Notes under the pieces: model-generated
What the model was told of the DNA's origin: nothing
The model's database searches: none
The model's input: only the letters and a program-made list of their open reading frames with translations
In this document: one piece after another, positions 1-1,237 of the stretch
Position numbering within the stretch: position 1 is the first letter of the stretch
Layout of the letters: every line of letters begins with the position of its first letter
Translations under genes and position numbers: made by a program
Source: Escherichia coli
GTDB lineage: Bacteria > Pseudomonadota > Gammaproteobacteria > Enterobacterales > Enterobacteriaceae
Assembly (NCBI RefSeq): GCF_003334315.1
Contig: NZ_QOWR01000119.1
Strand: one strand, 5' to 3'
Length of the DNA stretch: 1,237 bases

Positions 1-614
1 GCCTGCCGGGGCAGCAGTATGATGAGGAGTCCGGCCTGTATTACAACCGCCACCGCTATTATGACCCGCTGCAGGGGCGATATATCACTCAGGATCCGAT
101 TGGACTGAAGGGGGGATGGAACCTGTATGGATATCAATTGAATCCGATATCAGACATCGACCCCCTGGGTTTATCTATGTGGGAGGATGCAAAATCGGGG
201 GCATGTACTAATGGTCTTTGCGGCACACTATCCGCTATGATAGGTCCAGATAAATTTGATTCTATAGATAGCACCGCATATGACGCCTTAAATAAAATAA
301 ATAGCCAATCTATTTGCGAAGATAAAGAGTTCGCTGGTTTAATATGTAAGGATAATAGTGGCAGATATTTCTCAACAGCACCTAACCGAGGAGAAAGAAA
401 AGGATCATATCCATTCAATAGCCCTTGCCCTAATGGTACTGAGAAAGTATCAGCTTATCATACTCATGGTGCAGATAGTCATGGAGAATATTGGGACGAA
501 ATATTTTCAGGTAAAGATGAGAAAATAGTTAAAAGTAAAGATAACAATATCAAGTCATTTTATTTAGGTACGCCCAGTGGTAATTTTAAAGCAATAGATA
601 ACCACGGGAAGTAA
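1..614 (+). CDS. Rhs-family polymorphic toxin, 3' portion (5'-partial): end of the RHS repeat-associated core plus a variable C-terminal toxin domain
   Basis: Frame 3 is open from position 3 to the TAA at 612..614 with no upstream stop, so the gene starts outside the window. The translation begins [57 protein letters not shown], which is the hallmark C-terminal end of the Rhs core (YD repeat followed by the PxxxxDPxGL boundary motif). The start at 138 in the ORF track is an in-frame TTG (Leu), not a real start. Which Rhs paralog this is cannot be determined from the window. Confidence 0.93.
159..173 (+). other. DPLGL core/toxin demarcation motif of Rhs (predicted autoproteolytic release site region)
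   Basis: Codons gac-ccc-ctg-ggt-tta encode DPLGL at 159..173. A first DPIGL lies at 93..107. In Rhs proteins the conserved PxxxxDPxGL motif marks the junction between the conserved core and the variable C-terminal toxin. Confidence 0.85.
174..611 (+). other. Variable C-terminal (Rhs-CT) toxin domain, 146 aa, family unassigned
   Basis: This is the segment after DPLGL: [18 protein letters not shown]…[33 protein letters not shown]…NHGK. It is AT-rich (about one-third GC by eye, versus about 60% GC in the first 60 nt of the window). It contains 5 Cys and a His cluster (HTHGADSH). No HExxH, HNH or obvious deaminase motif was seen. Confidence 0.75.
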
Positions 615-627
615 ATAACAAACAGAA

Positions 628-632
628 AAGGA
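628..632 (+). promoter_or_regulatory. Shine-Dalgarno-like sequence (AAGGA) for the downstream ORF
   Basis: AAGGA at 628..632 lies 7 nt upstream of the ATG at 640, which is the first start codon after the in-frame stop at 616..618. Confidence 0.5.
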
Positions 633-639
633 TTACCTA

Positions 640-1023
640 ATGTCTGCAGAGTTCATGGTAATATGTAAAAAAATATTGTTTAGGAACTGTGTCATTGTAT
701 CTTTGTTTGTTTTTACATACAACACATGGGCGCAGTGTAATAATAATATTAAAATAATGCGCAAGTATGAAAGTGAAGGTAAATATACCGTTAGAAATTT
801 GGTTAAAAATAAAGCTATAGCATTGGAATTAGCTGAGATATATGTTAAGAATCGTTATGGACAGGATGCCGCAGAAGAAGAAAAACCATACGAAATCACT
901 GAGTTAACAACAAGTTGGGTTGTTGAAGGTACCATTCACTCAGACCAAATTGCTGGTGGGGTTTTTATTATAGAAATAGGCAAAAATGATGGGAGAATTC
1001 TGAATTTTGGCCACGGAAAATAA
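640..1023 (+). CDS. Putative cognate Rhs immunity protein (127 aa) with a signal-peptide-like or membrane-anchor N-terminus
   Basis: Complete ORF from ATG 640 to TAA 1021..1023, same strand and 25 bp downstream of the rhs stop, with the same AT-rich composition as the toxin domain. This is the canonical position of an rhsI immunity gene. The N-terminus (MSAEFMVICKKILFRNCVIVSLFVFTYNTWAQC) has basic residues followed by a hydrophobic stretch of about 11 residues and a possible signal peptidase I site (TWA|Q). The C-terminal half (…AEEEKPYEITELTTSWVVEGT…AGGVFIIEIGKNDGRILNF…) looks to me like the small NTF2-like/YbbC-type immunity proteins found beside E. coli rhs genes, but that is an unverified recollection. 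Confidence 0.7.
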   Translation: MSAEFMVICKKILFRNCVIVSLFVFTYNTWAQCNNNIKIMRKYESEGKYTVRNLVKNKAIALELAEIYVKNRYGQDAAEEEKPYEITELTTSWVVEGTIHSDQIAGGVFIIEIGKNDGRILNFGHGK

Positions 1024-1033
1024 GTATGTAAGG

Positions 1034-1056
1034 GGTGATGATGCCAACTTACTGAT
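1034..1056 (+). repeat. IS1 left terminal inverted repeat (IRL)
   Basis: GGTGATGATGCCAACTTACTGAT differs at one position from the canonical IRL I recall (GGTGATGCTGCCAACTTACTGAT). The exact start is ambiguous by 1-2 nt because of the preceding G run (1032..1035). Confidence 0.85.
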
Positions 1057-1088
1057 TTAGTGTATGATGGTGTTTTTGAGGTGCTCCA

Positions 1089-1237
1089 GTGGCTTCTGTT
1101 TCTATCAGCTGTCCCTCCTGTTCAGCTACTGACGGGGTGGTGCGTAACGGCAAAAGCACCGCCGGACATCAGCGCTATCTCTGCTCTCACTGCCGTAAAA
1201 CATGGCAACTGCAGTTCACTTACACCGCTTCTCAACC
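1089..1237 (+). CDS. insA: IS1 InsA (transposition repressor / N-terminal part of the InsAB' transposase), 3'-partial
   Basis: GTG at 1089 followed by codons for [48 protein letters not shown], the InsA zinc-finger region (CxxC…CxxC). The frame runs off the window end. Confidence 0.93.

Follow-up and report, generated by a model that had tools for sequence, protein, structure and literature searches.

We analysed a 1,237-bp stretch of Escherichia coli DNA (the window) and found that it is an entire draft contig. QOWR01000119.1, of assembly GCA_003334315.1, is 1,237 bp long, has its genes in the same layout, and is base for base equal to the window and to the locus that we fetched as L023. When we compared the window with 5,426 complete E. 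coli genomes, its left part proved to be rhsB-yhhH and its right part IS1 (Table 1). The contig opens inside the multi-copy Rhs core and closes at nucleotide 204 of the multi-copy IS1, and our data on this IS1 cover its nucleotides 1 to 204. Short contigs bounded by repeats are a common outcome for such loci in short-read assemblies. Contigs of other assemblies likewise start no more than 2 bp from window position 1. In the assembly collection, a protein identical to YhhH is listed for 40,955 index blocks, and 22,714 of these blocks are without any carrying contig of at least 2 kb.

TABLE 1 Features of the 1,237-bp window, in window coordinates
Feature	Position	Strand	Basis or remark
Rhs core, 3' end of rhsB	1..173	+	Translation; named rhsB or RHS element core protein in RefSeq
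Variable C-terminal toxin region of RhsB	174..614	+	DUF4329 at about 270..608
yhhH, NTF2-fold cognate immunity gene, 127 aa	640..1023	+	Pfam Imm-NTF2-2; "protein YhhH" in RefSeq
Native stretch 3' of yhhH, GTATGTAAGG	1024..1033		Same in all fetched loci, which read on into ATAATCAAAC
Candidate 9-bp target site TATGTAAGG	1025..1033		Within the native 10-bp stretch
23-bp terminal inverted repeat at the left end of IS1, with A at nt 8	1034..1056	+	Identical to the IS1 of L001
Promoter-like site ATGCCA-16-TATGAT	1041..1068	+	Consensus scan; overlaps the left repeat
insA, 5' part, GTG start	1089..1237	+	Ends with the contig at IS1 nt 204

In the rhsB part of the window, a motif of the PxxxxDPxGL type at 144..173 closes the Rhs core, and the DUF4329 domain comes after it (Pfam E value, 1.3e-38). 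Full-length homologues also have PF03527 RHS and YD-shell matches upstream of the toxin region. Directly 3' of the toxin domain lies yhhH, a small gene predicted from its Imm-NTF2-2 domain (Pfam E value, 3.4e-26) to encode the immunity protein; its TAA stop codon is at 1021..1023. Our search of NCBIfam found no family for either the toxin or YhhH, and the domain assignments come from Pfam.

We found that rhsB of the window carries a nonsense change, G612T, which converts GAA to TAA at 612..614. RhsB is thereby shorter by 18 residues than in other genomes, in which the stop codon is TAA at 666..668, and the 29-bp overlap of rhsB and yhhH is lost. Position 612 is a G in all 19 of the comparison loci L001 to L019. 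The rhsB-yhhH module is present at 99% identity or more in about 2,684 of the complete genomes that we compared, and the T612 allele was found in none of them; the best matches all had one mismatch. A look-up of the L001 RhsB cut at this nonsense codon likewise gave no record. We did find T612 in the draft contigs L020, L021, L022 (and three contigs similar to L022), and L024. Four of them are also the closest relatives of the window over positions 1 to 1033, with 0 mismatches in L020, L021, and L022 and 1 mismatch in L024.

The module occurs in two chromosomal contexts, nikR…yhhI-yhhJ and yibF…yibA-yibG-Imm57-yibH. Contigs with T612 come from both of them, and L020 and L021, which lie in different contexts, have the identical module sequence. 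The window is thus compatible with either context. Judging from these sequences, the presence of T612 in both contexts suggests that the two rhs loci have undergone exchange or conversion, or that the module has passed from strain to strain.

We found that IS1 opens with GGTGATGATGCCAACTTACTGAT at 1034, ten bases past the yhhH stop codon. All 18 fetched loci without IS1 at this site read GTATGTAAGG followed directly by ATAATCAAAC; the breakpoint at 1033/1034 is therefore the exact first base of IS1. The first-pass annotation had placed the left end of IS1 10 bp past the immunity stop codon, and its coordinates and description are correct. The IS1 bases of the window match the complete 768-bp IS1 of L001 (NZ_AP025205.2) at 204 of 204 positions, and they match the copies in L003 and in L008 at 203 of 204, the difference being an A for a C at nucleotide 8. 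These matches rule out a chance resemblance. The left repeat begins with GGT and agrees with the usual repeat at 22 of 23 positions and with the repeat of the L001 copy at all 23. The variant with A at nucleotide 8 (A8; window position 1041) has 2,074 occurrences in 337 of the 5,426 complete genomes, with up to 37 copies in one genome. A variant present in so many copies evidently belongs to a transposition-competent subfamily.

The GTG start codon of insA is nucleotide 56 of IS1 (window position 1089), and insA shares the strand of rhsB and yhhH, as the first-pass annotation had reported. The 49 residues of insA that the window encodes match the zinc-binding domain of IS1/IS1595 (NF050000; E value, 5.5e-11), and further profile matches are to NCBIfam NF033558 and, for the called gene of L023, to PF03811 (Zn_ribbon_InsA). 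The insA promoter of IS1 is known to be located in this part of the element, and the promoter-like site at 1041..1068 is presumably that promoter. Taken together, the left repeat, the promoter-like site, the insA start, and the zinc-ribbon N terminus liken these 204 bp to IS1 of the IS1A/IS1B type of E. coli and Shigella, as do the AT-rich target and the neighboring copies with duplications of 8 to 9 bp. The differences are one base of the left repeat (A8) and the insertion site, since the site at +10 after yhhH is used in no complete genome that we searched. Copies elsewhere that share the 204 bp of IS1 seen in the window are 768 bp long.

The junction of yhhH with IS1 was found in one piece in none of the 5,426 complete E. 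coli genomes. Three single-piece matches with at least 80% coverage were unrelated IS1 junctions at 86 to 87% identity, and we rejected them. The exact 52-nt junction pattern had no match in the GTDB representative genomes and none in the JGI metagenome contigs, and none of the ten long contigs from a context look-up of YhhH had the junction. A junction absent from all three of these sequence collections, in a draft contig of 1,237 bp with a repeat at both bounds, could be a chimeric join, in which the assembler attached an IS1 read to the yhhH flank where a short contig ends. We consider such an artifact very improbable. The switch falls exactly at nucleotide 1 of IS1, as in real transposition, and the flank and IS1 have no common sequence that could mislead an assembler. 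In addition, the contig holds as much as 204 bp of IS1, and the same contig was reported in two samples.

The IS1 site is empty in the T612 contigs L020, L021, L022, and L024. Since the closest relatives of the window all have an empty site, the IS1 event is recent and lineage specific. From the distribution of T612, impairment of the RhsB toxin gene may predate the arrival of IS1.

We also looked at other IS1 copies around yhhH. IS1 has entered the DNA 3' of yhhH repeatedly: in 18 complete genomes it lies no more than about 560 bp past the gene, in the same orientation as in the window in 8 and in the opposite orientation in 10. With these counts, we rejected the idea that IS1 prefers one orientation with respect to rhs. 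Sites of copies in the opposite orientation were taken from match spans rather than read from the sequence, and these spans suggest that the +154 and +482 sites have each received IS1 in either orientation, depending on the strain. We read nine same-orientation copies, those of L001 to L006 and L009 (which stand for the eight genomes), of L008 (+644), and of the draft contig L015 (+624). IS1 target duplications are 8 or 9 bp long (PMC12428005). Among the nine copies, all within 650 bp downstream of yhhH, we found clean duplications of 8 to 9 bp in eight. The GC content is 26 to 41% across window positions 201 to 1050 and 35% in the 600 bp that follow. Elsewhere, we observed an IS1 within yhhH itself (L028, 3218..3970), and in other strains IS1 divides the C-terminal region of rhsB, which is then annotated as rhsB and a separate "DUF4329 domain-containing protein."

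The ninth copy, the IS1 of L001 (5342..6109; +318), has no duplication, and blastn showed that 1,348 bp of adjacent sequence is missing. The deletion spans the yibA remnant from this IS1 onward, together with most of yhhI. The left junction of this copy, at +318, is the same as that of the insertion with a duplication in L009 (4369..6484). The first-pass annotation had raised the possibility that IS1 mediates deletion here, and L001, with its 1,348 bp lost, provides a precedent at this locus. We found no evidence for the mobilization of the module that the same annotation had raised.

We consider it probable that the junction arose by a simple IS1 insertion that duplicated (T)ATGTAAGG. According to this model, the lineage of GCA_003334315.1 would have acquired a 768-bp IS1 of the active A8 subfamily by transposition into the AT-rich sequence that directly follows yhhH, with duplication of TATGTAAGG, or 8 bp thereof. 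The right end of the element, …AAGTTGGAGTCATTACC, would then be followed by (T)ATGTAAGGATAATCAAAC, and the expected right junction would read ...CATTACC-TATGTAAGG-ATAATCAAAC. Consistently with this, the break lies at nucleotide 1 of IS1, eight of the nine neighboring copies have duplications, and the site is empty in all comparison loci, including the four T612 contigs with 0 or 1 mismatch. The coding sequences of rhsB and yhhH are unaffected by IS1.

The junction could also come from an IS1-mediated rearrangement, in which an older downstream IS1 (such as the one at +318 in L001 and L009) deleted leftwards to +10 or recombined with a second IS1. This would leave one IS1 with unmatched flanks, and the yibA remnant would be partly or wholly gone. 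In favor of this reading, the IS1 of L001 has both the A8 repeat and the first 204 bp in common with the window, and position 612 is the one difference in its left flank. L001 already carries an IS1-associated deletion of 1,348 bp without a duplication. The window aligns to L001 at 99.9% identity in two pieces that are 308 bp further apart in L001 than in the window. Against this, L001 has G612, and in every contig with T612 the site is empty and the available sequence contains no IS1. A8 is common (2,074 copies), so that its presence in both says little about descent, and eight of the nine neighboring copies are simple insertions. We therefore regard a rearrangement as unlikely and favor a simple insertion.

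To see what IS1 separates from the module, we compared rhs loci that lack IS1. We found that yhhH is followed by a 104-bp spacer and then by yibA or a yibA-like HEAT-repeat gene, an arrangement that is continuous in 2,973 genomes. In the yibF-yibH context (L007, L010, and L021), yibA is intact (280 aa) and is followed by orphan rhs C-terminal (CT) fragments, yibG, and the Imm57 gene. In the nikR-yhhJ context, about 351 bp of yibA is left, with an internal stop codon that makes it a pseudogene, and yhhI, the transposase gene of ISEc1, comes next. The relevant gene downstream of the module is thus yibA or its remnant. The first-pass annotation had proposed that the insertion may have separated the rhs locus from orphan CT/immunity modules further downstream, and it was right in kind. 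A simple insertion would place 768 bp of IS1 between rhsB-yhhH and the yibA-type orphan immunity gene. On the nikR side, it would cost little function, as yibA is a pseudogene there even without IS1.

The spacer itself appears to have a history of displacement. Its last 60 bp or so (L007, 5919..5978) is homologous to the region upstream of yibA in L027 (1493..1552). In L027, yibA comes directly after the Rhs core, and the homologous part consists of the 3' tail of an rhs CT and the 20-bp gap before yibA. By this homology, the end of the spacer is the remnant, or signature, of an older displaced CT.

We also asked what ends transcription downstream of yhhH. A prediction scan of the + strand found no terminator-like site in either the window or the spacer that natively joins yhhH to yibA. 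RNA folds across the junction were no more stable than those of shuffled sequences (z scores, −0.9 and −0.55), and Rfam had no structured RNA at the junction. These results agree with the earlier observation that no terminator separates yhhH from IS1. The further suggestion that IS1 displaced the native terminator was not borne out, because a window and a spacer without a predicted terminator leave no obvious intrinsic one for IS1 to displace.

IS1 is a classically polar element, and we infer that the copy in the window would be polar on the downstream yibA. Transcripts leaving yhhH would run straight into the left end of IS1 and reach insA 65 nt later. Read-through into insA is plausible and has precedent in the literature, where flanking transcription is known to modulate IS1. 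In the work of Machida et al. (1983), as cited in PMC12428005, read-through repressed cointegration. In a 2025 study, a terminator placed upstream lowered insAB' transcription and transposition (PMC12428005, section 2.5). These published effects, repression in 1983 and stimulation in 2025, are opposite in sign, and the direction here is therefore not predictable from the sequence. With the IS1 copies that depend on flanking transcription (Machida et al. 1983; PMC12428005), the window shares a co-oriented insA and no terminator between the flanking gene and IS1.

The rhsB-yhhH module has the same domain order as the described module with an orphan yibA, which is an example of Rhs C-terminal displacement (Jackson et al. 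2009, Poole et al. 2011, PMC3150448). Shared with this architecture are a core ending in DPLGL, DUF4329, and Imm-NTF2-2; intact loci add the tail remnant of an older CT and yibA. The window differs from the intact rhsB-yhhH-yibA chain in the IS1 at +10 and in the premature stop codon, which takes 18 residues of RhsB. We concluded that the junction of the window is an ordinary strain-specific IS1 polymorphism at a well-known locus, seen in a public draft contig, and that no new mechanism is needed to explain it.

A broader reading is that IS1 recurrently targets the AT-rich end of the module, yibA remnant included, in E. coli populations and that the Rhs module of this strain is decaying stepwise. 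The nonsense mutation in the toxin gene would have come first, and the uncoupling of the orphan immunity gene by IS1 would have come second. We offer this reading tentatively and hold it to be doubtful. If it is true, IS1 is a regular agent of rhs locus turnover and not a random passenger.

The significance of the finding is mainly for annotation. The contig is a repeat-bounded rhsB-yhhH fragment with a strain-specific IS1, and the gene that IS1 cuts off is yibA or its remnant. According to work by Vlazny and Hill (1995), as cited in PMC3150448, yibA neutralizes the C-terminal toxin of RhsA. Should yibA be intact in this strain and be cotranscribed with rhs, the strain could be left unprotected against the RhsA-type toxins of neighboring cells.
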